Part shown: positions 1 through 21,446 of the stretch, piece after piece
Layout: each line of letters starts with the position of its first letter
Numbering within the stretch: the stretch's first letter is position 1
DNA from: Candidatus Eiseniibacteriota bacterium
GTDB lineage: Bacteria > Eisenbacteria > RBG-16-71-46 > JABDJR01 > JAWXBZ01
Assembly: GCA_034440375.1 (NCBI GenBank)
Contig: JAWXBZ010000023.1
Location: 1 to 30,837, forward strand
Reading direction: 5' to 3'
Length of the DNA: 30,837 bases
Notes under the pieces: generated by a model
Told to the model about the DNA's origin: nothing
The model's input: the letters and a program-made list of their open reading frames with translations, nothing else
The model's database searches: none
Program-made: the position numbers and the translations under genes

Positions 1-923
1 ACCTGGCCGGCATCGAGATCGGCGAACAGCGTGTCGAGCCGGAGGGGCACCTCCACGAAGTCGAGTTCCGTGCCATGCCGTCGGCGATAAAAGCAACGGA
101 CGCGGACGCCCGCCAGCCGGGACCGCAGCACCGGATGCTCCGGATGCAGGTTGACGAATTCGAGCGGCTCATTGCCCCTGAGGTAGATGCCGTCCAGGTA
201 TTGATCCGGCGGCGCCGCGTTGAAATAGCGCCAGTCGAAGTCGGCGGGGTACCAGGGCCAGCGTTCGGCCAGCCAGGAGGCGTCGAACGTGCCGATCCGG
301 CTCATGCGCTGGGGCCATTCCGGGCTCAACGGACCGAACCCGATCGGCGCGGCATCGTGCAGCGAATCGGAGCCCCGACCTTCGAGGGACTGGATGTTGG
401 GCGCCATGCGAACGGCGCGGCCGTCGACGACGACGTTCTCGTCGATGCCGCGCCCCACCGGATTGCGGGCGAACCCCGGCCCGCCGTAGGCGCGGCTCCA
501 CTCCAGGCTCATCGACCGGAACGGGACGGGGTCCGAGAGGCTGGGGCCGACGACGCCGCGACGGATCAGCCGGTCTCCCACGACCACCGCCGGCTTGCGG
601 AAGGCTCCCACGGCAAACGCTACCGGCACGATCGGCTCCGCCCGCCCGCCGGGAGCGTGGCAATGAGCCGCCAGAAGGAGGTCCGTTCCCGGCTTGAACG
701 GCGCGAAGTCCGAGGCCCGGCGCAGGCCGCGCGCGGGGTCGTCGTCCCACGGGGCGTCGCCGTCCAGGTGAGGATGGTCGTCCTCTGGAAGCTTCTCGAC
801 GGCGCCGTCGTGCCGGAGGGTAAAGGATCCCTTCACGATGAACGTCGCGGTCAGGGAGTCGGCCAGGACATGATTGGCGATGACGCCGAAGCGCATCGCC
901 GAGTCGTTCACGACGATCGGCAT
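1..923 (-). CDS. DUF2169 family T6SS accessory/adaptor protein (3' end outside window; absent from the ORF track)
   Basis: Manual translation from ATG at 923 is open to base 1: MPIVVNDSAMRFG...TFIVKGSFTL...ASDFAPFKPGTDLLL...RAYGGPGFARNPVGRG...GFGPLSPEWPQRMSRIGTFDASWLAERWPWYPADFDWRYFNAAPPDQ...LRGNEPLEFVNLHPEHP...LDTLFAD, all hallmark DUF2169 motifs. Lies downstream of vgrG. Confidence 0.9.
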   Translation of the reverse strand, partial: MPIVVNDSAMRFGVIANHVLADSLTATFIVKGSFTLRHDGAVEKLPEDDHPHLDGDAPWDDDPARGLRRASDFAPFKPGTDLLLAAHCHAPGGRAEPIVPVAFAVGAFRKPAVVVGDRLIRRGVVGPSLSDPVPFRSMSLEWSRAYGGPGFARNPVGRGIDENVVVDGRAVRMAPNIQSLEGRGSDSLHDAAPIGFGPLSPEWPQRMSRIGTFDASWLAERWPWYPADFDWRYFNAAPPDQYLDGIYLRGNEPLEFVNLHPEHPVLRSRLAGVRVRCFYRRRHGTELDFVEVPLRLDTLFADLDAGQ

Positions 924-930
924 GGAAGGA

Positions 931-2421
931 TCAGGCCCACTTGATTTCGCTGCCCTGCATCTCGGCGACCATGTCGCAGACGATGTTGTAGCGGTTTCCG
1001 GCGTTGCCGAAGAAGCGATCGGCGCTGATGTCCACAGCGCCGTCCACCAGAAACTTGATGAACGATTCGGAATTCATGGCGTAGTTCTTGGCCTGGACCT
1101 TCAGGTCGTCCAGCTTGGCCTCCAGGACGTCCACCTCCTCGGTGCTCTTCTTGAGATTGGCCTGGTAATGCTTGGCGCGGGAGGCGATCGAATCCATGGC
1201 CCGCTTCTGCTCTTCGTAGTCCACCTTGAGGGTCTTCCGGAATTCCTCGAGCTTGTCCTTGTACTTCTCGACGATGTCCGTCGCCTTGTGGTTCAGTTCC
1301 TTTTCGCACTCCGCCCGCTTCTTCGGATTCTTCCCGTGGTAGAAGGTCGGGTCGAGTTCGACGCGGCTCCCCATGATGGTTTCCGTCACGTCTCCCAGCA
1401 CGTGCTCCACCTTGATCCCCACGTTGCGTTCCCACCGGTATCCCTTGACGTACCGGGTGTCGTCCATGAAATCGCACTTGAGCTCGATCCCGAACGTTTC
1501 GTCCAGCTTGCCGCCCAGCACGACCGACACTTCAGCCGAGACGGTGTGGGTGATCGTGTTTCCCTCCGTGAGCTCGACAAGCTTTCCTTCGATCTTCTGG
1601 TAGTCGTCGCCCCCGATCAGGAACTTGTTGAACTCCTTGAAAGCCGTCGTGAAGTTCCCTTCGGTCCACGAATGGATGCCGGGGCCGTTCTCCGGTTGAG
1701 CCGGGCATCCGCAGAGGGCCGCTTCCCCGGTCGTCGAGGGATGTTTCGGCGCGTCCGCCGCCTTGGCCGCCGCGGCGGCCTCCGCGATCTCATTCTTGAT
1801 CGATTCGACCTGCTTCTGGGCCACGTCGGCCAGGGCCGCCTTCATGACGGCAAGGGTCCGCAGACCTTCCGCCTTCGTTTCCGCGGCCTTCGCGGCCTTC
1901 TCCAGTTCGTCCGACCTCGTGCGGTCGCTCGTGGCGGCGGCTCGAGCCGTCCCGGCCCTCTCCGCGTCCGCGGTGGCCTGCTTCCTGGCTTTGGCCGCCC
2001 GCTCGCAGGCGGACTCTCGCTGTTCTTTCGCCGTGGTCAGCCGGGTCTCAGCCGCCATGACGGCGTTGTCGGCGGCGGCCGTTTCGGCATTGCACTCACC
2101 CGGGTTCAACGCCCGGACCTGGGCGGCCTCCTTCTGCTTCTGGGCCAGCTCGCTCTCGGCCTTCGACTGGTTCTCCGTCGCCGATCCGCACGCACCCTCG
2201 GCGGCCTTGGCCGTGCCGTCCGAATTCGCGGCCACCTTCTCCATGGACCCGGCAACGCCTTCGGAGCCGTCGGCGACGGCATCCGCCGCCTGGGCATCCC
2301 GCGCCGCCGAGCCGGCATCCAGCTTCGCCTGGTCCGCAGCCAGATGGGTCTCCCTGGATTCGGCCGCGGACGTCGCCGCGGTCTTTTCCTGCTCGGCCAG
2401 TTTTTCTTCGAGTGTGGACAC
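931..2421 (-). CDS. Spike/needle-like protein C: Ala-rich helical N-terminal half plus gp5-like beta-helix C-terminal half (496 aa)
   Basis: GTG start with GGAG 6 nt upstream. From GIHSWTEGNF (nt 1680) there is 8-residue Gly periodicity (YQKIEGKL/VELTEGNT/VSVVLGGK/LDETFGIE/TRYVKGYR/WERNVGIK/VEHVLGDV), ending MQGSEIKWA like a spike tip. Confidence 0.6.
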   Translation of the reverse strand: MSTLEEKLAEQEKTAATSAAESRETHLAADQAKLDAGSAARDAQAADAVADGSEGVAGSMEKVAANSDGTAKAAEGACGSATENQSKAESELAQKQKEAAQVRALNPGECNAETAAADNAVMAAETRLTTAKEQRESACERAAKARKQATADAERAGTARAAATSDRTRSDELEKAAKAAETKAEGLRTLAVMKAALADVAQKQVESIKNEIAEAAAAAKAADAPKHPSTTGEAALCGCPAQPENGPGIHSWTEGNFTTAFKEFNKFLIGGDDYQKIEGKLVELTEGNTITHTVSAEVSVVLGGKLDETFGIELKCDFMDDTRYVKGYRWERNVGIKVEHVLGDVTETIMGSRVELDPTFYHGKNPKKRAECEKELNHKATDIVEKYKDKLEEFRKTLKVDYEEQKRAMDSIASRAKHYQANLKKSTEEVDVLEAKLDDLKVQAKNYAMNSESFIKFLVDGAVDISADRFFGNAGNRYNIVCDMVAEMQGSEIKWA

Positions 2422-2437
2422 CTTCTGCTCCCGGGGC

Positions 2438-3265
2438 TCAGGTCGCCTTGGTGATCGTTGCGGCCAGCTTCACCATGCTGCCGGCCATGAACCGCACCTC
2501 GCTCTTAAGATTCTTCTCCACCTTGGCGCTCGAGGTGATCTCATGCGCCGTGGCGGCGATGCTTTTGAAGGTGCCCGAGTACTTGGCCTCGGTGGTCTTG
2601 CACTCTTCCTTCAGGTCCTTGATCTTCCCCTGAAACTTGGTCGTCTTCTCGATCCACTTCTCGACTTCCATGTTCGCGTTGTTGACCTCGGTCTCCCGCG
2701 TCTTCAGAAGCGCCTCGACCTTGTCGTGCTCCGCGAAGAAATTCTTGATGTCCTGGTCCAGCTTGGTCGACAACTCCCGCTCGATTGCCTGAACGTGCTG
2801 CTCGAAGATCTTCATCTTTCGCTCGTGCCGGACGTCGTCGTCCTTGGTCGCCTTGCCGGCCTCGTGAAGCGCCCGGTCCGCGTCATATCGCTCGTATTTT
2901 GCCCCGATGACGTACTCGGAGCGGTTTCGCGTTGTCTCCTCGTGACGCCCCTTGCGGATGAAGGCGAAAACTACCCCGAGGTTGAACTTGTTCTCGAACA
3001 GGAAGACCACCGACCGGGCGTATCCGAAGGTCGTGTTGTGCGAATGGCCCCGGGTGATCGACGTCGTCAGCGAGCCGACGAACCTCGCGGTGACGCCCAA
3101 CGTCCGCTTGTACGAACTGAGCTTGAACGCCTCGGACAAGTCCTTGTGGCGCTTGAACCAGTGCCCCGGCGACACGAAGAACGCGCCGCCATCCGCGGGC
3201 GGCGCAGGCGGCTGGGCCTTGTCCCCCGGCTCCTTGCCGGGAACGGCGCCGTCACCATCACCCAT
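2438..3265 (-). CDS. Spike/needle-like protein B, gp5-like beta-helix (275 aa)
   Basis: ATG with GGAGG SD. Short Pro-rich leader, then GAFFVSPGHW (aligns with GIHSWTEGNF of protein C) and 7-8-residue strand repeats (TSITRGHS/HNTTFGYA...SEVRFMAG/SMVKLAA/TITKAT). Confidence 0.6.
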   Translation of the reverse strand: MGDGDGAVPGKEPGDKAQPPAPPADGGAFFVSPGHWFKRHKDLSEAFKLSSYKRTLGVTARFVGSLTTSITRGHSHNTTFGYARSVVFLFENKFNLGVVFAFIRKGRHEETTRNRSEYVIGAKYERYDADRALHEAGKATKDDDVRHERKMKIFEQHVQAIERELSTKLDQDIKNFFAEHDKVEALLKTRETEVNNANMEVEKWIEKTTKFQGKIKDLKEECKTTEAKYSGTFKSIAATAHEITSSAKVEKNLKSEVRFMAGSMVKLAATITKAT

Positions 3266-3288
3266 TTCGGCAACCTCCGGAGGGCACG

Positions 3289-4125
3289 CTACTCACCCAG
3301 CTTGACGAGATCGGCCGTGAACTTGATGACCTGCGCCTTCAGCTTCATCGACTTCTTCTTGGAAGCGCAGTCGGCGCCCTTGATCTTCATCAGGGACGAC
3401 ACCGCTTCCTTCATCGAGCCGGTACGGCGCTCAAACTTGCCGCAGTCCATCTTGATTTCGTCGATGGTCAGGCTCATCTCCTTGACGAGCGTCTGGATCT
3501 TCTTTGCCTTGAGCCGCATCTCCTGGCTGACCTGTATCTCCATCAGCCGGATCTTCTCGTCCATGTCCTTGACCTTTTGCTGGCACTTCTTCGCCTTCTC
3601 CTCGAGCAGCGATCCGACCTTGGTCGCGAGCTGCTCGATGAGAATTTTCTCCATCACGTGCCGTTCCTGGCTCAGCTTGGCGTTCTTGGAAGTGTACTTG
3701 CCCTTCGTCAGGTGCTTGTACGGGCCGAGGAAGCCCTCCTTCTTGTCCCCCATGACGATCTCGGTCTTCTTGCCGAGGATCTCGTACTTGGCCGCGGCCA
3801 TCTCGCTGGCGAAGATGCCGTACGTCCGGGCGTTCGAATTGGTGGCGACGATTTCGCTGGACGACCCCTGGATGACCGAGTGCTTGGTGCCGACGATGAA
3901 CTCGAAGTAGCCGAGGGCGCGGAATTCGTTCTTCCCCTCGCCGACGTTGAGCCACGCATTCCCCTCGGTATGGGATACATGGTTCTTGACGTCGACGCAG
4001 TGGGCCTTGTCCGAAGTCGCGTTGATGCCGGGCGAGTCGGGAGGCTTGGCCGCCTTCGCGTCATCGGCGACCGCACCGGGGTCCTTCGGATCGACGCCGC
4101 AACCGCCGACAGGTCCGCCTGCCAT
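3289..4125 (-). CDS. Spike/needle-like protein A, Lys-rich gp5-like beta-helix (278 aa)
   Basis: SD GGAG overlaps the vgrG stop (TAGGAG-7nt-ATG). Repeats SHTEGNAW/FEFIVGTK/HSVIQGSS/TEIVMGDK, then heptads EMRLKAK/KIQTLVK/EMSLTID/EIKMDCG, ending VIKFTAD/LVKLGE. Confidence 0.6.
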   Translation of the reverse strand: MAGGPVGGCGVDPKDPGAVADDAKAAKPPDSPGINATSDKAHCVDVKNHVSHTEGNAWLNVGEGKNEFRALGYFEFIVGTKHSVIQGSSSEIVATNSNARTYGIFASEMAAAKYEILGKKTEIVMGDKKEGFLGPYKHLTKGKYTSKNAKLSQERHVMEKILIEQLATKVGSLLEEKAKKCQQKVKDMDEKIRLMEIQVSQEMRLKAKKIQTLVKEMSLTIDEIKMDCGKFERRTGSMKEAVSSLMKIKGADCASKKKSMKLKAQVIKFTADLVKLGE

Positions 4126-4135
4126 GTCGTCGCTC

Positions 4136-6163
4136 CTAAGCCGGCTTGTCGCCGATGGAAAAGTAGGTGTTCGCCGTGGGTGAGGTCATCGCGACCCGCT
4201 GCCCCCCCGCCGTATCCTCGATGACGATCTTGTTCCCCCCACCCGTATGAATCACCGACTGCGTCTGGTTCGCCCCCGTCACCGGGCTCTTCGTCTCCGG
4301 ATTCGGTACGCTCCCGACGATGATGGGCCTGTCCGGATCACCATCGAGATGGATCAGAAGCACCTCCGTCCCCTTGTGCAGCGGAAAGTGCATTCCCATG
4401 CCGGGGCCGGAATAAGGTTGCGCCATGCGGAAGTAGCCGGATGCCTTGCCGGCGCCGGCATCCGAGAGGTCATACGGCAACCGGCACTTGTACCGGCCGA
4501 GATCATCGATCTCCGCGTACTCGCCCGAGCCGCCGGCATCGATCTGGGCCTTCATGTACCCCTTCACCACCGGCCGGGGCGTCACGCGCGGCGGCCGGAA
4601 CATCGTGGCGGCGGGGATGGCCGTGAAGCTGTTCACGTAGGAGGGCCGCTCCGATTTGCCCCCCGCGGAGGCGCCGACGGCGCCCATCTGGCGGCCGGAA
4701 TGGTGAACGTCGGTGAGCAGATATTTCTGGTTGTGCCCCTTGATGAAGTGATCTAGGAGTTCGAACGTGGCGCCGGCTCGCAACTGACGCACGGCGCTCT
4801 CGCCCAGGTAGATCTTCTCCTTGCAACTCTGCTCCTCGGCCCGCACCTTGGCCAGGCGTTTGCCGTCGTCCGGATCCTTGAAGTGATTGCCGTACTCCAT
4901 GAAGGTGCCGAAACCGGTCTTGACGACGTCGGATTCGCCTTTGATTTCCAGCGACGGCTTTCGATAGTTGTAATCCTTGAGCAGGATCTCCTTCGAGAGC
5001 TGCTGCTGACGGAAGATCAGCAAGCCGACCGCCTCCCCGGCCGTGCTGATGGCCTGGGCGTCGCGGAACGGCACCTTGGGATCGCCCTCGATCGGCAGGT
5101 GCGATTCCTTCATGTCGGTGATGATCAGCTTTTCCTGTTCCTCGCCGTGCTCGAAGAAATAGAACATCCCCTCGTGCTCCATCCGGCGGCTGATGAAGTC
5201 GAAGTCACTTTCCTGGTACTGGACGACGTACTCGCGTTCAGGGCCCGGTTCCTTGATCTTGATGTCGAAGTCGCGCCCCTTCGACATCCCGTTTTCCTCG
5301 AGGACTTCCTTGATGATCACGTCGATCGTCTTGGCCAGGAAGACCTGGCTGGTCTTGGTAAACGTGAGATTGTGAAGGCGCGGCACCAGGGCCACGCGGA
5401 AGTAGGAGTACTCCGGCCCTTTGCCCCGCTGCTCAAACTGCGTGACGATGCCGTGGAAGCGGCTGACCTCATCCGCGCGATGAATCAGGAGCACCGCCGA
5501 CTTGTTCAGGACCGTGGCCGGGTCGATGCTCGGGTCATTGGCCGCGAGGTCGATGTCGAAGCGGTAAAGGCGGGAGATCCCTTCGTCCCCTTCCACGCCG
5601 ACCGGCGTGAAGGTGGCCGGGTCGAGCCCCAGGACCTGAAATTCAAACAGGATGTCACCCTTCGAGGCCTCACCTGGTTCGCCGGGCTCGGCGGCAGGGG
5701 TCGGCGACGGAGAAGTGGCGGGGGACGCGGCCGGCGCTGCGGCGGCCGGCTGGATCGCGGGTGCGGCGGGCGCCGCTGGAGCCGCGGGTGTCGGAGCAGC
5801 GGGTGCGGCCGGAGTCGGCGGCGCCGATGGGGCCGCCGGAGGCATGGAGACACTCGCTGCACCCGGAATGCCGGGCACCGATGGCACACCGGGGACCGAT
5901 GGCACGCCCGGAACCAACGGCACGCCCGGTACTTTCGGGATCTCCGGTACGCCCGGCACCTTGGGAATTTCCGGCACCTTCGGAATCGTCGGCACGCCGG
6001 GAATGTCCTGTAGTCCCGGCACCTTCGGCACCTGGGGCACGCCGGGAATAGCCGGGGGCGTCGGCACGCCGGGAATGGCCGGCACACCCGGCACCGGCGG
6101 AATACTCGGCGGCTTCGGCACGGGAACAGGCGGTATGCCGGGTGGGTCCGGAATCGGACTCAT
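4136..6163 (-). CDS. vgrG: Type VI secretion spike hub VgrG (TssI), 675 aa, with N-terminal Pro-rich extension and no C-terminal beta-helix
   Basis: Motifs EGDEGISRLYRFDI, REYVVQYQESDFDFISRRMEHEGMFYFFEH, DYNYRKP, IDDLGRYK, GMHFPLHKGTEVL..GDPDRPIIVGSVPN. True start judged to be ATG 6163 (GAGGA SD), not 6436. Confidence 0.95.
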   Translation of the reverse strand: MSPIPDPPGIPPVPVPKPPSIPPVPGVPAIPGVPTPPAIPGVPQVPKVPGLQDIPGVPTIPKVPEIPKVPGVPEIPKVPGVPLVPGVPSVPGVPSVPGIPGAASVSMPPAAPSAPPTPAAPAAPTPAAPAAPAAPAIQPAAAAPAASPATSPSPTPAAEPGEPGEASKGDILFEFQVLGLDPATFTPVGVEGDEGISRLYRFDIDLAANDPSIDPATVLNKSAVLLIHRADEVSRFHGIVTQFEQRGKGPEYSYFRVALVPRLHNLTFTKTSQVFLAKTIDVIIKEVLEENGMSKGRDFDIKIKEPGPEREYVVQYQESDFDFISRRMEHEGMFYFFEHGEEQEKLIITDMKESHLPIEGDPKVPFRDAQAISTAGEAVGLLIFRQQQLSKEILLKDYNYRKPSLEIKGESDVVKTGFGTFMEYGNHFKDPDDGKRLAKVRAEEQSCKEKIYLGESAVRQLRAGATFELLDHFIKGHNQKYLLTDVHHSGRQMGAVGASAGGKSERPSYVNSFTAIPAATMFRPPRVTPRPVVKGYMKAQIDAGGSGEYAEIDDLGRYKCRLPYDLSDAGAGKASGYFRMAQPYSGPGMGMHFPLHKGTEVLLIHLDGDPDRPIIVGSVPNPETKSPVTGANQTQSVIHTGGGNKIVIEDTAGGQRVAMTSPTANTYFSIGDKPA
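5690..6150 (-). repeat. Low-complexity coding repeat: ~9-bp P-x-(V/I) units followed by Pro/Ala (PAAP) units in the vgrG 5' region
   Basis: PGVPTIPKVPEIPKVPGVPEIPKVPGVPLVPGVPSVPGVPSVPGIPG then PTPAAPAAPTPAAPAAPAAPA; recurring ggcacgccg/ggcaccttc on the + strand. Confidence 0.9.
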
Positions 6164-6237: not shown

Positions 6238-6384
6238 GCCGCCCGGCCTGTGGGCTGCATCGTCGAAATTTCCGCGCGAAAGATTGGCTGCGGGGTGCCG
6301 TACGGGACTCGGAGTCGCCCCGCCACCCGTGTATGATCCATGGCACCTTGAACAGAGTAAATGTCCCCGCCGGTGGGAGTCCGA

Positions 6385-8358
6385 ATGCCTGACGAGTTGC
6401 CCCCAGATCCCGACGCCACCGTCGCCCATACCCCATCCTCCGGCCGTTCGTCCGGTCCGGAATTGCCGATCGTTCATGCGAAGTCCGGCGAGGAGTTGCC
6501 CGAGACCGCGGCCAGCCAGCTCAAGGCCGGACAGATCCTCTTCAGCCGATACGCATTGAAACGAGTGTTGGGCCGGGGCGGCTTTGGCGTGGTCTGGCTG
6601 GCGGACGACCGTGAACTCGACATCGAGGTGGCGCTCAAGTTCCTGGCCGACCACATCGCTTCCAGCCACGATTCGGTTCAGGACTTGAAGGGGGAGGCCC
6701 GACGCAGCCTGCGGCTCACGCACCCGAACATCGTCCGGATCTTCAACTTCATCCAGGAAGGCTCGCTGGTCGGCATCAGCATGGAGTATGTGTCTGGGGG
6801 GTCGCTGCCGCAGATCCGTGCGGCGCGGGGGCTCCGCGCCTTTCCGCTCGCCGATCTTTTGCCGCTGGTCGGCCAGCTGTGCGATGCCCTCGAATATGCC
6901 CACACCAAGCCGCGCATCGTTCATCGCGATCTGAAACCGGCAAACCTGATGCTCGATTCTCACGGCGAACTCAAAATCGCCGATTTCGGCATCTCCCGCA
7001 GCATCTCCGATTCGCATACGCGCCTCACCTCCCCTGGCGACTCCTCCGGCACGCTGGCCTACATGAGTCCGCAGCAGATGATGGGCGAATCACCGCGCCC
7101 TTCGGACGATGTGTACTCGCTCGGGGCCACGATCTTTGACCTGGTGACCGGCAAACCCCCCTTTCACTCGGGCGATGTCGTGCGGCAGGCGCTGAACCTG
7201 ACACCATCCTCCATGGCCACGCGGCGCATCGAACTGGGCACCGAGGGGGAGTCGATTCCGCCGGAGTGGGAGGAGGTCGTGGCGGCCTGCCTCTCCAAGG
7301 AACCGCTGGAGCGACCGATCGGCGCCCTGGCCGTTGCCGAGCGGCTGGGACTGCGGACTGTCTCGGCTTCCGGATCGTCGGTCAGCGGGCGACCCTCCTC
7401 TTCGGCCCCTCCCGATGATGCAACGATGGTGCTCGGTTCGATTCCGGCGGGCGCAAAGGTGACGCGAACCCCGTCAGCCGAGTCGGCACGGACCGTGACG
7501 GCGCCAACCCGGACACAGGAACAAGGCTCGATTGCCGTGCCGGTTGCGCCCTCGCGACGCGGCATGAGCCCGTTGCTGCTTGCCGGTGCGCTGGGCGGCA
7601 TCTTGCTCGTCGTGGCAGGCATTCTCTTCGTGCCGCGCTGGCTGCGCCCGAAGTCTCCGTCAACCGTCGCGGTCAACCCCCCGATGACGCAGCCGGCAGA
7701 CGACGTGCCGATTGAGCCCCCCCCGGTTCCTGCGGCGCCTTTTGATTCTGGACGCGCGGTGAGCCGCGTCGAACCTGACCCGACCGACCGCGCTCGCGAA
7801 GCAGCCCTTGAGGCGCGTCGCCGCGAGCGGGACGTTGAGTCGGCCCGCCGCGAGGCCGAGGATCGGGCGCGCCGGCTCGAATCCGAACTGGCCGAGGCGC
7901 GGCGTGTCCGCGAATCGAGGCCGCCGGCGGAGACGCGCGTGATTACCCCGGCCTCGCCACCGGGCGATCCGCCCGCACGCACGCCGCCGACTGGTACCAC
8001 GGATCGCGCCGCAACCGAGCGGGCCGATGCCGAACGGGCCGCGAATGATCTCGTCCATCGCTACGAAGCCGCGATCGAGGCCCTCGACATCGGCGCCTAC
8101 GCCGCCCTCTGGCAGCGATTGCCCGACGCCTCGCGGAAGGCGCTGGCAAGTTCCTTCCGTGACACCGAAAGCCTGTCACTCGAAATTACCAACATGCGCA
8201 TCGAGCCGGAAGGCGAGAGGACCGTGGTTCGCTTCCGCGAGAATCGCTCGATCCAGCCGAAAGCGGGGCCGAAGCAGTCGGTGGGGCGCGATGTCCGCAT
8301 GACACTGATCCGTCCGGCGGGCGGCGACTGGCAGATTGGCGAGCTGACCGGCTCCTGA
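6385..8358 (+). CDS. Membrane-anchored Hanks-type Ser/Thr protein kinase (PpkA-like by context) with C-terminal NTF2/SnoaL-like domain
   Basis: GRGGFG, VALK, HPNIV, HRDLKPAN, DFG, GTLAYMSPQQ, DVYSLG; TM LLLAGALGGILLVVAGILFV; Pro-rich and coiled linker; terminal domain LVHRYEAAIEALDIGAY...WQIGEL. ATG 6385 follows GGGAG (alternative start 6361). Confidence 0.93.
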   Translation: MPDELPPDPDATVAHTPSSGRSSGPELPIVHAKSGEELPETAASQLKAGQILFSRYALKRVLGRGGFGVVWLADDRELDIEVALKFLADHIASSHDSVQDLKGEARRSLRLTHPNIVRIFNFIQEGSLVGISMEYVSGGSLPQIRAARGLRAFPLADLLPLVGQLCDALEYAHTKPRIVHRDLKPANLMLDSHGELKIADFGISRSISDSHTRLTSPGDSSGTLAYMSPQQMMGESPRPSDDVYSLGATIFDLVTGKPPFHSGDVVRQALNLTPSSMATRRIELGTEGESIPPEWEEVVAACLSKEPLERPIGALAVAERLGLRTVSASGSSVSGRPSSSAPPDDATMVLGSIPAGAKVTRTPSAESARTVTAPTRTQEQGSIAVPVAPSRRGMSPLLLAGALGGILLVVAGILFVPRWLRPKSPSTVAVNPPMTQPADDVPIEPPPVPAAPFDSGRAVSRVEPDPTDRAREAALEARRRERDVESARREAEDRARRLESELAEARRVRESRPPAETRVITPASPPGDPPARTPPTGTTDRAATERADAERAANDLVHRYEAAIEALDIGAYAALWQRLPDASRKALASSFRDTESLSLEITNMRIEPEGERTVVRFRENRSIQPKAGPKQSVGRDVRMTLIRPAGGDWQIGELTGS

Positions 8359-8910: not shown

Positions 8911-11900
8911 CTACGGCCGAAGCCCCTGCTGAATCCAGGTCAGAACCGTGTTGTAGTCCGTCTGGCCGGTCTGGAAATTGGCGAAACTGCCGCCGCTGTG
9001 GTCGCCGGTCGGGGCGCCCGGCCTGGTCAGGATCGGGCTGGCCGGCGGGTTGCCGGTGTTGCCATAGGGCGTGGCATTGCTGTAGATGGTGAGATCGACC
9101 ACCGCGACGCCGTCGTGACAGCCAAGGTTGTTACAACCGCTGGCGATGAGGATCGGCCGGACGGAACTCGCGAAGCCGGCCGCGCCCGTGCCGGTGGCCT
9201 GAACGTCGATCGCGCAGGCAGTGCCGAGGTCGATGGCGCAGTTCTGGGCCCCAAATGTCGTCGGACTGAAGCGGATGGTCACGATCCGTGAATTGCCGGA
9301 CATCAGGCCGAACCCTCCCGCCCCGGCGATGATCGTGTAGGCCTGGCACGACTCAGTGACGCTTCCCGACAGTGTGCCGCCGCCGCCGTTCGTGATCGTG
9401 AAGCTCTGGTCAACCGACTGGCCGGTCGTGACCAGGCCGTACGTCAGACTCGTCGTCGAGAGGTTGCAAACCGGCTGGGTTTCGCCGGTGCCGGTGGCCA
9501 TGATGTCGGCGCAAAGCGCCGATCCCGTCTCGATCGAGCAATTTTTGGCGCCGACGCTGGTGGGCTGGAATCGGACGATGACCGTGTGCGATTGCCCCGC
9601 TGTCAGGCCATAAGGGATGCCGCCCCCCACGATCGTGAAGTCGGGGCAATTGATCGACGGGATGCCGGCCAGCGTGCCACCGCCGGTATTGGTGATGTCG
9701 AAAGAGCTCTCAGCGGTCAGGTTGATGCCAACGCTGCCGAAGGCGAGGTCAGGCGGCGAGATGCGGCACTCGGGGGGCGGATCCCCCTGCCCCTGTGCCG
9801 GCAGATCGGCGCATCGTGTCGTGCCGGTCTCGATCGTGCAGAAACGATTGCCCGCGGCGGCGGGCGTGAATCGGACGGTTATCGGTCGGACAACCCCGGC
9901 GGCGAGAGAGTAGCTGCCGCCCCCCGATACGATCGTGAACTCCGCACAGGGGGAGCTGATCGTGCCATCGAGCATGCCGCCGCCGGTATTCGAAAGGGTG
10001 AAGCTGATTTCCGACGAGGCGCCCACCGGCGTCAGCGGAAAACTGAGCAGCGTCGTCGACAATCCGCAGGCTGGCATGGGGTCAGCCACGCCGCTCAATG
10101 TGATCGTTCCGCAGCGCTCGCTGCCGGTGACCAGGGGGCACAACTTGGTGCCGGCCGTGAGCGGACGGAATCGAATCGTGGCCGTGCGCGTCAGCCCGGC
10201 CGGCAGGCTGAACGACCCACCGCCGGTCACGATTTGAAAATCATTGCAGTCCTCGATCAGGGTGCCGGTCAGCGTACCACCGCCGCTGTTGGTAATGGTC
10301 AGCATCCGATCCACCGACCCGCCGACCGTGACGGTGCCGAAGTCGATGGCGGTGGCCGACAGCTGGCAGGCTGGCTCGACATCTCCGAAGGCTGACGCGG
10401 GAATCGGTGGACAGTCACTGGTGCCCGTATCGATGTCGCAGAGCCTGGAGCCGGTGCCCGACGGGGTGAATCTAACCGTGACCATCATCCCCACTCCGGG
10501 AGCCAGGGTGAATGGGCCACCGCCGGAGATTATCGTGAAATCAGCGCACATCTCGGCGAGCACTCCGCTGATGGTCGTTCCGCCCAGGTTTGTCAGGGTA
10601 AAGCTTCGGTCGGCCGATTGACCGATGAACACCGTGCCGAAATCAAGACTGGTCGGCAGGACGCGGCAGAGGCTGGCGGCAGTGCCGTTTCCCGAGGCCG
10701 CCACATTGTTGCAGTTGACGCTGCCGAGCCCGATGCCGCAGGTGCGGAGGGCCTGAAGGGTGGGTCGGAAGCGGACGGTGACCTTCAGACTCTCCCCCCC
10801 GCTCAGACCGTAGGGGCCGGTCCCTTCGATGACCTCGAAATCGTTGCAATTTTCGGAGATGGTGCCGGAAAGCACGCCACCGCCGATATTGGTGACGACA
10901 AAGGACTTTTCGGCAGACGTATTGACCGTAACGCCGCCGAACTGGAGCACGGACGGCGAGAGCGAGCAAAGCGGCAGGGCATCACCGACGCCGGCGAGCG
11001 TGATTCCGGGGCAATCCGTGCTCCCCAGGCTGAGCAGGCAGCTGCGCTCCCCCGCGTTCGGCGGCAGGAAGCGGACCGTGACCGTTCGCGACACCCCCGC
11101 AGCGAGCGAGTAGGGTCCGCTGTTATTGGTCACGGTGAAGGCATTGCAACCAGTGGCCACACTTCCGGAGAGGACCCCGCCGCCATCGTTTCGAATCGTG
11201 AATTGGAGTGTCCGACTCTGGTTCGGTGTCACGGTGCCGAAATCGAGGAGTTCCGGGGTGATCACGCAGACCGGCACGGCGAATCCCCGGCCAGCCAGTG
11301 ACAGCGGTGCGCAGCCGCCGCCGATATCGAGGGAGCACGACACGGAGCCGGCGGTGTTTGGCGTGAAACGAACGCGGACCACCCGCGACTCACCGCTGGG
11401 AAGCGTCCAGGCGCCGCCCCCTTCGATCACTTCAAATGTCTGGCAGCCAGCCGATACGAAGCCCGAAGCCGTGCCGCAGCCGGCGTTGTTGATTGAAAAC
11501 GCGGCAGTGGCCGACTCCCCCTGCGGCACCGAGCCCAAGTCAAGCAGCGAGGTGCTGAGTTGACACACGACCGGCGTCCCGGCCTCCCCCGACAGCCCGA
11601 CCGGCGCACAGGTCGTGATGCCAAACGACAACGTGCCGCTCCCGCTTCCCTGAGCCAGGGGCGCGTAACGCACCATCACCATGCGGGTCTCGTTGGCGCC
11701 AAGCGTATACGGACCGGCCCCCGCCGTCAGCGTGAAATCAGCCCCGCTCACGGCAACGCTGCCCGAGAAAGCGGTCGTCCCCGGATTGCGGAGGGTCACC
11801 GACCGCTCGGTGCCCGCACCGGGGCAGACGGAACCAAAGGTGAGCATGGCCGGCACGACCTCGCAGACGGCCGGATTGGTGGCCAGGCCAACCGCCGTGA

Positions 11901-12591
11901 CATCGAGACAGGCCGCGGCGCCGGTCTCGATCAGACAGGTTTCATTCCCGGCTCCGGTCGGAGCAAAGCGGACCCTGACCTCGCGGCTCTGGCTGGGGGC
12001 CAGCGTGTAGAGGCCCCCGCCCGACACAATATTGAAGGAGCCGCACGGGGCCTCGACGAAACCGGAGTACGCTGTCGGGCCGGTGTTCGTCATCGTGAAT
12101 GTCCGTTCAACGGCGGTGCCACCGACCTCGACCGTTCCGAAGTCGAGTGTCCCGGGCGAGACAAGGCAGGCATCACCGGGGGTGGCACGGCCGGTGAGTG
12201 CGACAAAGCGGCAGGCGGTGCCGAGTCGGATTTGAGCGGCGTGATCACCCGGAGTTCCCGGGCGGAAACGGACACCCACCCGCCGGAGCTGACCCGGGGC
12301 CAGTGAAAAGGCCCCACCTCCCGAAACGATTTCGAAGGCGCCGGCGTCGAGGGCCACCTGGCCGCCGAGCGTCCCGCCGCCCGTGTTGCGGATAAAGAAT
12401 GTCTTTTCGGTCGACGTCTGGCCGACTGTCATGGCGTCGAAGTCGATGGCGGCCTCCCGAACCTGGCAGGTCGGCTCGGCATCCGATGACGTCGGACCGA
12501 ACACGTCGTTCTCGCAGGCAGCCAGAACAATCAGCAACAGGAGCGCCATTGCGGCAAGCAGCCGGGAGGCAATGCGAGGAAGGGGGTTCAC
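8911..12591 (-). CDS. Large surface lipoprotein: 11 tandem ASH/choice-of-anchor-D-type Ig-like repeats plus C-terminal cytochrome c-like domain
   Basis: Signal/lipobox LLLLIVLAA-C after GTG 12591; repeat consensus C.lsp..ldFG.v.vg......FtitNtGGg.l.g.....C..F.i..Ggg.y.La.g.sr.vtvrF.P...g...C.i..g...C; C-terminus FASSVRPILIASGCNNLGCH...DHSGG...VLTWIQQG. Confidence 0.85.
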   Translation of the reverse strand: MNPLPRIASRLLAAMALLLLIVLAACENDVFGPTSSDAEPTCQVREAAIDFDAMTVGQTSTEKTFFIRNTGGGTLGGQVALDAGAFEIVSGGGAFSLAPGQLRRVGVRFRPGTPGDHAAQIRLGTACRFVALTGRATPGDACLVSPGTLDFGTVEVGGTAVERTFTMTNTGPTAYSGFVEAPCGSFNIVSGGGLYTLAPSQSREVRVRFAPTGAGNETCLIETGAAACLDVTAVGLATNPAVCEVVPAMLTFGSVCPGAGTERSVTLRNPGTTAFSGSVAVSGADFTLTAGAGPYTLGANETRMVMVRYAPLAQGSGSGTLSFGITTCAPVGLSGEAGTPVVCQLSTSLLDLGSVPQGESATAAFSINNAGCGTASGFVSAGCQTFEVIEGGGAWTLPSGESRVVRVRFTPNTAGSVSCSLDIGGGCAPLSLAGRGFAVPVCVITPELLDFGTVTPNQSRTLQFTIRNDGGGVLSGSVATGCNAFTVTNNSGPYSLAAGVSRTVTVRFLPPNAGERSCLLSLGSTDCPGITLAGVGDALPLCSLSPSVLQFGGVTVNTSAEKSFVVTNIGGGVLSGTISENCNDFEVIEGTGPYGLSGGESLKVTVRFRPTLQALRTCGIGLGSVNCNNVAASGNGTAASLCRVLPTSLDFGTVFIGQSADRSFTLTNLGGTTISGVLAEMCADFTIISGGGPFTLAPGVGMMVTVRFTPSGTGSRLCDIDTGTSDCPPIPASAFGDVEPACQLSATAIDFGTVTVGGSVDRMLTITNSGGGTLTGTLIEDCNDFQIVTGGGSFSLPAGLTRTATIRFRPLTAGTKLCPLVTGSERCGTITLSGVADPMPACGLSTTLLSFPLTPVGASSEISFTLSNTGGGMLDGTISSPCAEFTIVSGGGSYSLAAGVVRPITVRFTPAAAGNRFCTIETGTTRCADLPAQGQGDPPPECRISPPDLAFGSVGINLTAESSFDITNTGGGTLAGIPSINCPDFTIVGGGIPYGLTAGQSHTVIVRFQPTSVGAKNCSIETGSALCADIMATGTGETQPVCNLSTTSLTYGLVTTGQSVDQSFTITNGGGGTLSGSVTESCQAYTIIAGAGGFGLMSGNSRIVTIRFSPTTFGAQNCAIDLGTACAIDVQATGTGAAGFASSVRPILIASGCNNLGCHDGVAVVDLTIYSNATPYGNTGNPPASPILTRPGAPTGDHSGGSFANFQTGQTDYNTVLTWIQQGLRP
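9181..12468 (-). repeat. 11 tandem ~300-bp (~100 aa) Ig-like domain repeats
   Basis: Units start CQVREAAIDF, CLVSPGTLDF, CEVVPAMLTF, CQLSTSLLDL, CVITPELLDF, CSLSPSVLQF, CRVLPTSLDF, CQLSATAIDF, CGLSTTLLSF, CRISPPDLAF, CNLSTTSLTY. Confidence 0.9.
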
Positions 12592-12597
12592 GGCGCC

Positions 12598-12626
12598 AGT
12601 ATCAGGAGGGGACGGCGGATTGTCAA
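12598..12626 (-). promoter_or_regulatory. Putative sigma70 promoter of the Ig-repeat lipoprotein (likely leaderless)
   Basis: TTGACA-17 nt-GATACT, then 6 nt to the GTG at 12591. Confidence 0.55.
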
Positions 12627-12645
12627 CGAATTCGAAGCACTTCAT

Positions 12646-12674
12646 TTGACGGCCGGGAAGGCAAGTGCCAAGAT
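12646..12674 (+). promoter_or_regulatory. Putative sigma70 promoter of the beta-barrel gene
   Basis: TTGACG-17 nt-CAAGAT with an extended TGn, ~48 nt upstream of ATG 12723. Confidence 0.4.
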
Positions 12675-12722
12675 GCGCCGTCCATTTAGAAAATTTTGCC
12701 ACAGGCTTCCAACGGAGGCGTC

Positions 12723-15567: not shown

Positions 15568-17034
15568 CTAGCGCAGCGGCAGCTGAACTTCGAACTCGAG
15601 CGGCTTTTCCTGGATCTTGAACGTCGGCGTGATCTTGACCGCGGCCGCCACGCGCCCGTCGGGCAGCTGGATTGGCGTGGCCAGTACATGCGTACCCGGG
15701 GCATCGCCGACGAAGGGTGACAGCTCGGCGAACAGCTGGTGCTCGAGCCATCGACAGACCTCGGTCGGGTCCCCGGCCGGCAGGCGCCCGGACAAATCCA
15801 GCAGCCGGTGCGATACCTGTCCGGCATAGAGCTGGTAGGTCAGTGCCTGGTCCAGCGTCACGCTTCCGGGGGCGTGGCGGTAAGTGGTGGCGAGGAATGG
15901 GAAATAGGCGATATCGCCGTTCTGTTGCCCAACCAGCGGCGTGAAGCCGGCCCGGCAAAGATCCCACGCCTTTTCGTCCGGCAGGATGACCTCCGTCGGC
16001 ACCACAACCCTGGTCATTGGCCCCTGCTGCAGTTCACGGGTCGGCAGATCGCGGTGCCCGCCGGTGCCGGACAGGCCGTCGGCCGCAGCGCAATGGCCGT
16101 GCTGGGAATAGCTGGCGGCCAGGCTCACGCCGAGTGCCCAGATGGGGCTTCCCCACGCCAGCCACTCGGGATGGGCCGGATCGACGGTTTCATTGTAGAA
16201 GGCGTCGGATCCTCCGCCACCGTAGGGCGCGCGGAGGAGGAACCGGTTGACCGAAAGGCTTACCCAGCGCGCGGCGTTCTCGCGCTGAAAGAGATTCCAG
16301 CCGGCCCACGGGCCGCCAAACGTCTTGGTAGCCAGGTCGGGAAGCGACGGCAGGTGCGCCAGGTTCTTGAGGCCGAACATGGCCGGGCCGACCGAGGCCG
16401 CTACCGGCGTCTGGATCGCCGCGGCAAGTTCGCCGAGGAGATGAAGCCGCTCGATGGAGGCCATCTGATGATCAAATTCCTGGTCGATCAGCAGGGCCGA
16501 GGCGGCCACATCCGATGTCCCCTCGTAATCCGGATCAAAGATCTGGGCACGATAGCGATCCGCCCACTCCTCGCCGATTCCCGTGACCAGGGCATCCAGT
16601 TGCAGCGGCACCAGCCGGCCAATGCCGGCCTCGCCCCGTTTGGCCAGGTAGGCGAGCCCCAACCATGCGGATTCGAGCTTCGCGAAATCCGGATGATGAA
16701 CGATGGCATCGAGCAACGGCGTGCAGAGCGCTCGATCATCCGGCGACCCCTTGAGGGCGCCTCCCGCCGTGAGCTGTGGCGCCGCCTGGGCCCAGATCTC
16801 CTTCGGTTCGAAATCCCGCCGCTTCCGGAATTCCAGCGAGAGCGGGGCGCCGGCAATCTTGATCGACAGGCTCGGGGCCACCCGCTCGACGGCGCCGTCC
16901 AGATCGTCCGCCGCGACACGCATCGGCCCCCCGGGACGTGCGGGGTTATGCCCGGCCAGTGGCGCCACGACGACCAGTCGCAGCGGCGTCCAGGATAGTT
17001 CGTCGCCGGACGGACTCTTGGTTTCGTCATTCAT
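15568..17034 (-). CDS. tssC: Fused contractile sheath protein: TssB-like N-terminus plus TssC core (488 aa)
   Basis: N-terminal PLRLVVVAPLAG...RVAADDLDGAVERVAPSL...LSLEFRKRRDFEPKEI resembles TssB; LDAIVHHPDFAKLESAWLGL, LGELAAAIQTP, ARWVSLSVNRFLLRAPYG, WGSP, PTEVILPD..AGFTPL are TssC motifs. ATG 17034 overlaps the tagF end. Confidence 0.85.
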   Translation of the reverse strand: MNDETKSPSGDELSWTPLRLVVVAPLAGHNPARPGGPMRVAADDLDGAVERVAPSLSIKIAGAPLSLEFRKRRDFEPKEIWAQAAPQLTAGGALKGSPDDRALCTPLLDAIVHHPDFAKLESAWLGLAYLAKRGEAGIGRLVPLQLDALVTGIGEEWADRYRAQIFDPDYEGTSDVAASALLIDQEFDHQMASIERLHLLGELAAAIQTPVAASVGPAMFGLKNLAHLPSLPDLATKTFGGPWAGWNLFQRENAARWVSLSVNRFLLRAPYGGGGSDAFYNETVDPAHPEWLAWGSPIWALGVSLAASYSQHGHCAAADGLSGTGGHRDLPTRELQQGPMTRVVVPTEVILPDEKAWDLCRAGFTPLVGQQNGDIAYFPFLATTYRHAPGSVTLDQALTYQLYAGQVSHRLLDLSGRLPAGDPTEVCRWLEHQLFAELSPFVGDAPGTHVLATPIQLPDGRVAAAVKITPTFKIQEKPLEFEVQLPLR

Positions 17035-18043
17035 GGCTGAAGGACTCCTTCCCATCGAGATAATCGGACAGCCGGGCATCCGGGCGCGTCACCCGGCGCG
17101 CCATGGCCGGTGACAGCTGCTCGCGGGTGAACCCGGGATACGTTCGCTTCAGGACGCTCAGTGATTCCAGTTCGACATCGGGGTCGATCAGCGCCGCCCA
17201 CTGCGGACCCGAAGGCTGGCTGAAGAAGACCAGCACTTCGGCCGCCGGTCCTTCGCTGCCGGCCCGCCAGAAGATGGCGCCCGATTCCAGCGGCCGTCCC
17301 AGCTCGCGATTCAGCATGTCCAGCCAGAAGGCGGCGGCCGGGGTGGTCGTGACGGACGGCGTGGTGGTCGCTCCCGCCCCTTCCGCTCGATTCGCAACAG
17401 CAACCGGCAGTGGCATGGCGAGTCCGTAGCGGGTACCGGAAGGATCGCGGCCACGAAGCGGCGCCGTCGACTCCTCGAGATTCGACAGCACCACTCGCCC
17501 GCGCGCGGCGTCGGTTCCCCCGAAAACAGCGCCCCAAAAATCCTCGGCGCGCGTGGATTGCAGCCAGCGATTCAAGGCGGCCTCGCTCACTTGCTCGTCG
17601 GGCGACGGCGGGGCAGGCTCCCGGCGTACGGCTTCCAGGGCCCCGGCCGGCGTGCCGGCCTCGCGGCACGTCTGGAGCAGCCGTTCCATGATCGGTGTCA
17701 GATCATCCAGCGCGAGAAGCGTGGCGCCGGTCAATGGCCCGAGCGACTCGCACCAGGCCAGGATCGTGAAGGGATGACGGCGGCCGGCGCCATCCTCACC
17801 GGCCACCATGAGACCGTGGAGCCATTTGTGCGAGCGACCGCAATTCCAGAGGAAGCGCCAGGCCGGAAATTCCGCCACCAATCGATCGGCGCGGGGGCCG
17901 AAGCGGGCCTTGGCCAGCCCAAGCCCCTCCCCGACCCAGCGATCAAATCCCGACTCCGACAGGCGACGCGGATCGTCAACCAGGAATTCGCGGCTGACCG
18001 GGAGCTTGCCGAAACACCCGAAGCGCTCGATGCGGAGAGCCAT
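17027..18043 (-). CDS. tagF: T6SS-associated protein TagF (338 aa)
   Basis: FGCFGKLPVSREFL, FDRWVGEGL, WRFL, GLMVAGEDGAGRRHPF; directly downstream of tssM; ATG 18043. Confidence 0.9.
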   Translation of the reverse strand: MALRIERFGCFGKLPVSREFLVDDPRRLSESGFDRWVGEGLGLAKARFGPRADRLVAEFPAWRFLWNCGRSHKWLHGLMVAGEDGAGRRHPFTILAWCESLGPLTGATLLALDDLTPIMERLLQTCREAGTPAGALEAVRREPAPPSPDEQVSEAALNRWLQSTRAEDFWGAVFGGTDAARGRVVLSNLEESTAPLRGRDPSGTRYGLAMPLPVAVANRAEGAGATTTPSVTTTPAAAFWLDMLNRELGRPLESGAIFWRAGSEGPAAEVLVFFSQPSGPQWAALIDPDVELESLSVLKRTYPGFTREQLSPAMARRVTRPDARLSDYLDGKESFSHE

Positions 18044-18053
18044 GGCGTTTTCG

Positions 18054-21000: not shown

Positions 21001-21446
21001 GTGAGGCCTGGAAAGTTGAGCCCCGAGTTGACGATCAGCGTCGTCTTGCCGATGCCGGGTGGTCCGATGACCAGGTACCAGGGGAGGTCGTAGAGCGCCC
21101 GCTTCCCCTGGGGCGAATTGTTCAGCGTGGCCATCGCCTCGAGGAGGCTCTTCCGGATTTCCTCCAGGTCGCCGCGGCGGGCGGGCGCGGCGTTCTCGAC
21201 GCCCCACTGCGCCTGCTTCAGCAACCCCTGCTCGATCGCCTTCGCGCGGCGCCGCGCCGCCAGCCAGCTCCAGAGGATGACAATGGCCCAGATCAGCAGC
21301 AGCCCGAGGACGAGAACCCAGAAAATCCAGGGTGGCAATTTGGCGAGGAAGGGGACCCGCGGTCGGGCCAGGAAAAAAACCGACAGGATCAGAACGATCG
21401 GCAGGCCGAACGGCAGCAGGGTTCGCATGACCAGGCTCATGAACAT
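18054..21446 (-). CDS. tssM: T6SS membrane complex subunit TssM (IcmF)
   Basis: Two N-terminal TMs, LYDLPWYLVIGPPGIGKTT, LLDTAGRY, PINGLIL, FPVYVLFTKCDLISGF, FRGVYFSSG, third TM, periplasmic RYPF and PWAIAELFD. Confidence 0.96.
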   Translation of the reverse strand: MFMSLVMRTLLPFGLPIVLILSVFFLARPRVPFLAKLPPWIFWVLVLGLLLIWAIVILWSWLAARRRAKAIEQGLLKQAQWGVENAAPARRGDLEEIRKSLLEAMATLNNSPQGKRALYDLPWYLVIGPPGIGKTTLIVNSGLNFPGLTAAKRMRGTGGTRQWDFWFSTDAILLDTAGRYALSEDRTEAESEWFGCLELLRKNRPKGPINGLILGYSAESLGQLDENQLVHEARELRQRLDEMMEKLHWSFPVYVLFTKCDLISGFVEFFSSLSPAERQQVWGTAYAVEGPAGQPVGDRFRAGFAALVRRLREYRIRRMGRLEQGDSWGRAFLFPEEFAALENRAHLFIETLFEVNPFKKDMPIFRGVYFSSGRQMGRPFDMIISQIQSMLGGSRVVAEVQPEKEDAFFVRDLFTKVLKGDRELIGKTDAARRKYHRFSFAASTGLLALSLLSSAWIVGSCVRLGGRMGATKNAVTALPAGGGAADADLLVRLDGIRVSARRGWQAFPLVVANSVRDSALSVYSRVSRNQVLVPIEQDIARDLATPFDLDADRVRRALTAELMLLDPDNAKEFGTPEELAAILADYGFTGNEAKAMGPLTGIVEEYLGSKQPLRSFESRRNDLVTGGRRLAETHRPDAMLDGLIAAASRGCKDLRLEDLSNNGRVLSAPESARIRAAFTKAGFEGCVSTSLKDLKSTLEKDRKMLTRIGVATSGPPPSTDQVFDLYTEEYPREWADFIEVVRLPAVNDCAEFEPLLKKLRQRNGSALIGLLESAAAAAKLDEKLSESVFPGRVRKINDAMEPLITFAVAEKDKPSPADEYADLLGDLYRDVQACAEDPAKETAKGALKDAQDWVDQFSDRERANAVATGMAALLYAPTNVSAGVLKGSFIDAVAKDAKGKFDAEAAEPVKERLANRYPFGGSPENPAVFDDVLSLLKPDGLIESAAAEARRSGQTLSGAMDSFLSRLSKVRTGVRMTGDELKSVMTWKRLSVTAVEGNDTGEANLSRVDQVDVIVSGAKQSFQSDGDEATIEWSSSATSTDCGIELKYTRKNQTVDALRFDSPWAIAELFDKGKTGGGGGATVVTWQLPESGLEVQFEVSMRGGAECPFVRGSSFRKLPGALPDNILSGP

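Follow-up and report, generated by a model that had tools for sequence, protein, structure and literature searches.

What builds the needle of a type VI secretion system (T6SS) spike when the VgrG encoded in the locus stops before its own needle has begun? The question is raised by contig JAWXBZ010000023.1 (assembly GCA_034440375.1) of a Candidatus Eiseniibacteriota bacterium, a stretch of 30,837 nt that is referred to in full as the window. An operon on its minus strand runs from vgrG through three genes, designated A, B and C, to a DUF2169 gene that is cut by the contig end, with intergenic gaps of 10, 23, 16 and 7 nt. The spike is probably a split one, in which A, B and C provide the needle in trans on a truncated VgrG. 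The genome of the window, here G000, is a metagenome-derived assembly of 264 contigs that is 93.7% complete; G055, G135, G014, G047 and G007 are other genomes of the same phylum set (n=206).

The VgrG hub and its missing prism

The VgrG has a gp27-like hub (Pfam Phage_GPD, residues 194-492, E 1.4e-76) and a gp5-like OB-fold (Phage_base_V, residues 560-619, E 2.4e-7). The TIGR03361 model is matched with 362.9 bits, where the cut-off is 186, over model positions 2-491 of 513, ending 15 aa before the stop codon. Alignments to solved VgrG structures in the PDB end at residues 640-662 of its 675, equivalent to residue 474 in 7q5p (645 residues) and residue 520 in 6sjl (841 residues); past that end the solved proteins run for another 120 to 320 aa. 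The VgrG retains about 30 aa of beta-prism and no more, and a C-terminal triple beta-helical prism on the same chain was not found with TIGR03361, the PDB alignments or the fused homologs described below. The first-pass annotation had proposed that this protein ends where the needle should start, and both sets of alignments agree with it.

A VgrG is present in 54 of the 206 phylum genomes. Most match TIGR03361 through position 512-513 and have open frames of at least 700 aa. Only in G000 and G055 does it stop directly beyond position 491 of the model, where no additional open frame follows. The latter belongs to another genus of the same family; its VgrG has the identical stop point and is followed by A, B and C, with an A that is 36% identical to that of the window. 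The junction is also the same in a second, longer assembly record of the window's locus (L004).

Homologs in which hub and prism are fused show what normally follows this point. The 849-aa VgrG of G014 is 49% identical to residues 171-671 of the window VgrG and then continues for 339 aa in the same chain. That of G135 (750 aa) is 45% identical to residues 173-671 over its own residues 9-506, and continues with a prism of 243 aa built from glycine octads; it directly adjoins the DUF2169 gene of its locus. Both hub alignments stop four residues short of the window VgrG stop codon. Chain A (residues 29-129) is similar to residues 508-603 of the G135 VgrG (BLASTP E 4e-4), and columns 244-354 of the C family align with its residues 511-605 (hhalign E 2.7e-4, probability 42%). 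Aligned by Smith-Waterman with the G135 prism, A scores 66, where residue shuffles score 32.3 +/- 5.2; of 1000 of these none gets as high, and of 1000 in which blocks of 8 residues were shuffled 4 do. With the G135 hub in place of the prism, the observed score is reached by 183 of 1000 shuffles. In ESM Atlas features the nearest neighbours of A and of the beta part of C are Gp5_C-bearing clusters (scores 0.88-0.92), which is taken as a lead and nothing higher. Comparison by hhalign of the A, B and C families with the VgrGs of a Burkholderia class III locus, G047 and G014 and with the TvpC family gave nothing significant; the best weak alignments to G047 fall inside its prism, and no similarity of the G014 extension to A, B or C was detectable.

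The vgrG of the window starts at ATG 6163, with GAGGA upstream, or at ATG 5845; there are only these two options because codons 199-280 of the open frame hold no start codon. Residues 1 to about 169 (5657-6163, minus strand) are a Pro/Ala-rich extension with PGVP-type repeats; tandem repeats of 18 and 27 bp (5871-6094) make up part of its coding sequence. The 513-aa VgrG of G055 is without this extension. The G+C content at third codon positions (GC3) is 0.70-0.76 in the extension and 0.82-0.94 in the gene body. The extension would be oriented toward the Hcp tube.

Three paralogous chains of matched length

Each of A, B and C is preceded by its own ribosome-binding site (AGGAG, GGAGG or GGGAG), and A lies in a different reading frame from vgrG, as had been read from the sequence originally. 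Recomputation from the aligned anchor glycines, with codons at nt 4029, 3187 and 1680, returned the same anchor-to-C-terminus lengths of 246, 249 and 249 aa. These lengths are conserved: 246 aa for A in all five lineages, 249 for B in all four, and 249, 249, 249, 247 and 248 for C in five. All 13 full-length A-type proteins, whose identity ranges from 23 to 88%, measure 246-250 aa over this part and end in [VI]KLGE. The contrast in charge that had been pointed out between A and C holds for this part of the chains (net +14 for A and -8 for C, with B at +11).

Pairwise BLASTP similarity among the three is weak. At the level of family profiles A and B align collinearly with a probability of 91% (hhalign E 1e-6), and C aligns with A (94%) and with B (93%), collinear over almost the entire matched part. 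A profile from 15 A-type proteins run on G000 recovers B (E 2.5e-15) as well as C (E 4.1e-4). On these comparisons A, B and C are distant paralogs. They are also rare. A word-indexed search of 5.8 billion proteins gave 4 matches for each chain, and a HMMER pass over 1.84 billion representatives gave 17 family matches. None of the 17 is a VgrG fusion, and the sole match of more than 300 aa is a weak one to a 627-aa coiled-coil protein. One of the more distant A-type proteins (CAG0959878.1) bears the NCBI source name Planctomycetaceae bacterium. Among the phylum genomes the carriers of A, B and C are G000 and G055, exactly the two with the truncated VgrG.

The usual VgrG prism repeat is 8 residues. 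In the first 118 aa or so after the anchor, glycines at a spacing of 8 or 16 form 8 pairs in A, where 2.4 +/- 1.4 are expected (41 of 20000 shuffles reach this), and 12 pairs in C, where 2.8 are expected (0 of 20000). The score is 0 in the C-terminal halves of the chains and in the N-terminal domain of C. The prism intended as the positive control, that of the class III VgrG on Burkholderia sp. plasmid NZ_CP117780.1 (L014 6214-8505), turned out to have a near-perfect 7-residue repeat, with 26 glycine pairs at lag 7 and a score of 0 at lag 8.

The second half of the chains is of a different kind. In the AlphaFold2 (AF2) monomer of A a single long helix spans residues 149-277 with a predicted local distance difference test (pLDDT) of 70-83; in that of C helices span 366-460 (pLDDT 50-73) and are followed by short, low-confidence strands at 464-495. 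In both, 129-130 residues separate the start of the helix from the C-terminus. The hydrophobic period of 3.5 has a power of 54-65 in the helical parts and at most 18 in most windows of the beta parts of A, B and C, values that have no shuffle control. Weak family matches of the chains are to coiled-coil proteins throughout, B included, and the A-family profile against PDB sequences returned coiled-coil noise only, the best being apolipoprotein A-IV (E 7.6e-4). Each chain is thus predicted to consist of about 100 aa of glycine-octad beta structure, some 95-100 aa of alpha-helix with heptads and a short beta-like C-terminus. The 8-residue repeats of the first-pass annotation therefore stand, clearly in A and C, while what it took for alternating 7-residue beta repeats are the heptads of an amphipathic helix. 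Likewise its description of three gp5-like chains suits the roughly 40% of each matched part that is beta-octad and not the similar share that is predicted to be helical. The chains are not gp5-like throughout.

Chain C alone has an additional N-terminal domain. It is modelled as a two-helix hairpin (residues 4-105 and 112-219, pLDDT 80-98) rich in Ala, Glu and Lys, and its length is conserved in four lineages, where the whole protein has 485-496 aa. In a Foldseek search with the C model, generic long hairpins from chemoreceptors and SMC proteins outrank two components of alpha-pore-forming toxins, AhlB and SmhB (E 0.04-0.05, TM by query 0.27-0.37).

Interrupted prism-like modules are suggested to occur in cis as well in this phylum, since the VgrGs of G007 (L028 4286-6847) and G014 (L030 5936-8485), both beside DUF2169 genes, have C-terminal modules of about 340-370 aa in which beta-repeat stretches flank Ala-rich or hydrophobic inserts that are not octads. 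It may be that these modules correspond to the beta-helix-beta arrangement of the three chains; alternatively, the inserts may be effectors.

The capping genes and the proposed spike

Downstream of C the operon encodes, by domain content, a complete class III Tvp set. The definition of this class is taken from work on a system of Serratia marcescens in which VgrG1 works with TvpAB, TvpB, TvpC and Paar1 (PMC13373197; Monlezun, Earl and Coulthurst, EMBO J 2026). The contig of the window breaks within the pentapeptide-repeat part of tvpAB/tvpB, and another contig of G000 (C19, L005) bears the 3' end of tvpB, tvpC, the DUF4150 gene and then a convergent clpV. In G055 the order is uninterrupted (L003): clpV, VgrG, A (277 aa), B (273 aa), C (493 aa), tvpAB, tvpB, tvpC, the DUF4150 gene and a kinase gene. 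The fusion of TvpA to pentapeptide repeats, the separate TvpB, the DUF3540 TvpC and the DUF4150/PIPY protein that characterise class III are all present; the cognate VgrG with a long prism is not. Prisms are reported to be significantly longer in class III VgrGs, 186 A in S. marcescens VgrG1 compared with 81 A in VgrG2 (PMC13373197). In the model put forward there, the TvpAB/TvpB/Paar1 cap first assembles on TvpC, which is an OB-fold with a short prism, and encloses its prism tip with Paar1; VgrG1 replaces TvpC in the final complex, and the same arrangement is then found at the VgrG1 tip (PMC13373197).

In canonical loci vgrG is directly followed by tvpAB, as on the Burkholderia plasmid (VgrG of 763 aa) and in G047, which belongs to the same taxonomic order as the window and has a VgrG of 736 aa. 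G000 contains one VgrG, one DUF4150 gene and no PAAR gene. Since the capping genes and the only PAAR-like protein are present and the VgrG is without a prism, no genes of the locus other than A, B and C are candidates for the missing part. The fused homologs with the alignment of chain A, the Tvp set and the co-occurrence in the same two genomes support the earlier suggestion that the next three genes provide a needle in trans. TvpC ends in IKLG, A in VKLGE and C in IKWA, and B has VKLA; in G047 the end of TvpC likewise resembles that of its VgrG. This motif was noticed post hoc and has no profile support, and it is a lead that points to these C-termini as the tip to which PIPY would bind.

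In the proposed spike VgrG would give a trimeric hub, made of the gp27-like domain and the OB-fold, together with the first strands of the prism. The remaining needle would be added by A, B and C as separate polypeptides, each behind a flexible leader. The approximately 100 aa of 8-residue glycine repeats in each chain would prolong the triple beta-prism of VgrG in the same direction, the helices would pack as a three-stranded coiled coil, and the short C-terminal beta parts would make a blunt tip carrying the DUF4150/PIPY cone. That cone would be passed on from a TvpC pre-complex, under a TvpAB/TvpB cap, in the manner of class III Tvp systems. Were the helices continuous, the spike would reach an estimated 24-26 nm past the hub, at 0.73 A per residue for the prism (a value derived from the 81 A and 186 A of PMC13373197) and 1.5 A per residue for helix. 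A single copy each of A, B and C per spike is the favoured stoichiometry, for which the matched and conserved lengths, the constant set and order of three genes, their tight spacing and the single PIPY/Tvp set would speak. If so, there would be one copy of the 220-aa helical hairpin of C per spike. A fuller version is put forward tentatively, at somewhat under an even chance: an obligate A:B:C needle of beta-prism, coiled coil of about 14 nm and beta tip, held non-covalently on the needle-less VgrG. Through the break in its threefold symmetry this needle would bear exactly one PIPY protein and one 15-nm hairpin of C, possibly a membrane-active payload, which could be set free or inserted once the spike has fired, by an unzipping or refolding of the coiled coil. 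A complex prediction with A 28-278, B 22-275 and C 240-496 scored 0.05 and 0.11 against a mark of 0.32 and is used neither for nor against binding.

VgrG and gp5 needles are normally homotrimeric, and A, B and C could instead be three alternative needles, AAA, BBB and CCC, loaded on one VgrG hub to give three kinds of spike. The differing charges of the chains would suit this, and the hairpin found in C alone could mark different payloads. However, both complete loci (G000 and G055) have exactly three genes in the same order with no copy-number variation seen, and in the metagenome lists all three types are on contigs of the same size. Lengths also stay within 3 residues between the families across lineages, which swappable modules would not need, and there is one PIPY protein and one Tvp set. 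None of these points is decisive, and together they leave the homotrimers an unlikely arrangement. It is more unlikely again that A, B and C are secreted cargo riding the spike, such as a three-component membrane-active effector, and that TvpC or PIPY is all that the truncated VgrG needs. Effectors are often encoded just after vgrG, the long amphipathic helices weakly match apolipoprotein-type sequences, the hairpin of C has the AhlB and SmhB matches given above, and the class III VgrG1 pathway of S. marcescens depolarises target membranes (PMC13373197). Against this, the likeness of A and C to a VgrG prism begins exactly at the truncation point, the lists of open reading frames showed neither an immunity-like gene nor a signal peptide nor a transmembrane stretch, and the constancy of A-type lengths over so wide a range of identity would be more expected of a structural rod than of a toxin. 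The Foldseek matches are to generic long hairpins, with the toxin components ranking lower, and no family match placing A, B or C with the ClyA-family tripartite alpha-pore-forming toxins, which have an all-alpha tail bundle and a beta-tongue head, was found in Pfam or NCBIfam. TvpC, in addition, has no gp27 domain, therefore it is no substitute for a fired spike (PMC13373197). A decaying or mis-assembled vgrG followed by unrelated open reading frames might be feared in a metagenome assembly of so many contigs with a break inside tvpAB. It is highly improbable, as a genome from a different genus shares this split (36% identity), the GC3 of A, B and C (0.86-0.89) is like that of the vgrG body, and all three families have homologs of conserved length.

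Several observations weigh against the split spike in which A, B and C form the needle. The fold of the chains rests on sequence patterns, because the beta parts are modelled at pLDDT below 50 in the monomers of A and C. Searches of Pfam, NCBIfam and PHROGs assigned A, B and C to no family, Gp5_C included; matches to the repeat families Gp5_C (PF06715) and DUF2345 were absent from the three chains at E up to 0.1 and from 15 A-family members at E up to 10. Nothing in the all-beta prisms of G135, G047 or the Burkholderia VgrG corresponds to the helical half. Alpha-helical predictions had been named at the outset as grounds for abandoning the needle, and with a helical half in the A and C models this has partly come about. 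The glycine spacing of chain B is marginal (4 pairs compared with 1.4 expected, reached by 806 of 20000 shuffles), no significant similarity to VgrG prisms was found, and block shuffles reach its Smith-Waterman scores against the prisms in 340 and 434 of 1000 cases. For C, block shuffles reach the score in 176 of 1000 cases with G135 and 35 of 1000 with G047, so that the likeness is mostly one of repeat type. For both chains most of the excess over residue shuffles is lost once blocks are shuffled. B and C appear to have the repeat grammar of the prisms without a demonstrated collinear signal, and the place of B in the prism-like group comes from its paralogy with A and C. The co-occurrence with the truncated VgrG counts as one evolutionary event and carries no statistic, because G000 and G055 belong to one family. 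Position alone does not make a gene structural either, since the interval between vgrG and tvpAB in S. marcescens holds an immunity gene and an unrelated gene (PMC13373197).

The proposed split spike can be set beside several known devices. The fused VgrGs of G135 and G014 have hubs 45-49% identical to that of the window and the same boundary motif, and the G135 continuation is close in length to the chains (243 compared with 246-249 aa); they differ in being single chains, hence homotrimers, and that of G135 is all-beta. In the phage T4 gp27-gp5-gp5.4 device hub and needle are on separate polypeptides, the repeats are of 8 residues and there is a small cone cap, but the needle is a homotrimer and the split lies before the OB-fold. 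The window would share the separate polypeptides, the 8-residue repeats and the cone cap, with the split after the OB-fold and three different chains. The tail needle of the podovirus P22, gp26, is a homotrimeric membrane-penetrating fibre of triple beta-helix and long coiled coil. The combination proposed here is alike, although there is no detectable sequence relation and gp26 is not from a contractile system. To our knowledge, all described T6SS spikes carry the needle on the VgrG chain and are threefold symmetric. The class III Tvp spikes of S. marcescens (PMC13373197) have the same accessory genes in the same order and the same need for a long prism tip; here the prism would lie outside VgrG, and three paralogous genes, each with a predicted helix of about 95-100 aa, stand between vgrG and tvpAB. 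It has been stated that 'VgrGs can form heterotrimeric assemblies' (PMC6960284), and the field accepts spikes built from different VgrG paralogs. In that case whole paralogs mix, whereas in the proposed spike only the needle would be heteromeric, on a homotrimeric hub. In the full-text literature covered, neither a VgrG divided behind its OB-fold nor a trio of paralogous needle genes was found described; the appendix of PMC13373197, a survey of other phyla that lay outside this scope, might show such loci.

If the proposed spike is real, the modularity of T6SS spikes can extend to the needle itself, with a hub that takes a detachable needle of three chains. It would be a natural case of symmetry being broken before the PAAR/PIPY cone, and it would extend the class III Tvp model to a cap that is handed from TvpC to a separate needle complex, not to VgrG. 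A coiled-coil segment in a piercing needle would be unusual for contractile injection systems. The rarity of the family and the strong constraint on its lengths make it a clean target for structure determination.

The surrounding locus

The coordinates of the operon and of the T6SS core genes are collected in Table 1. The window holds a genuine T6SS cluster, since tssC-like, tagF, tssM, tssL and tssK genes share it with the spike operon.

Table 1. Features of the window and, for the capping genes, of the other sequences that carry them.
Feature	Location	Strand	Product and parts	Basis
tvpAB, 5' part	3-923	-	DUF2169 domain; cut at contig end	Pfam
chain C	931-2421	-	496 aa; helical hairpin 4-219 (nt 1765-2412); linker; Gly-octad beta 248-~365 (nt 1327-1680); predicted helices 366-460; predicted strands 464-495, ends IKWA	
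chain B	2438-3265	-	275 aa; leader 1-26; predicted beta ~27-145 (nt 2831-3187); predicted helical ~146-245; C-terminal part holds VKLA	
chain A	3289-4125	-	278 aa; leader 1-32; Gly-octad beta ~33-148 (nt 3682-4029); predicted helix ~149-250; C-terminal part ends VKLGE	
vgrG (tssI)	4136-6163	-	675 aa if the start is ATG 6163	Pfam, TIGR03361
tssC-like	15568-17079	-		Pfam VipB
tagF	17027-18445	-		Pfam TagF_N
tssM	18054-21446	-		Pfam IcmF-related
tssL	21449-22168	-		Pfam DotU
tssK	22165-23535	-		Pfam T6SS_VasE
tvpAB	L004		791 aa; DUF2169 and pentapeptide repeats	Pfam
tvpB	L004; contig C19 (3' end)		719 aa; pentapeptide-repeat protein	Pfam
tvpC	contig C19		180 aa; DUF3540	E 2.1e-17
DUF4150/PIPY PAAR-like gene	contig C19		137 aa; Tox-PAAR-like	E 1.7e-30

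A gene for a Ser/Thr protein kinase adjoins the spike operon in both genomes, at 6361-8358 on the plus strand of the window and at 18649-20802 in G055 (L003). The call is by Pfam Pkinase for the G055 copy and by eye only for that of the window. Together with tagF (Table 1) the kinase may be part of a phosphorylation-based T6SS switch. Between the kinase gene and the T6SS core genes, on the minus strand at 8911-12702, the window encodes a 1263-aa protein of about 12 tandem repeats of some 90 aa with recurring Cys.

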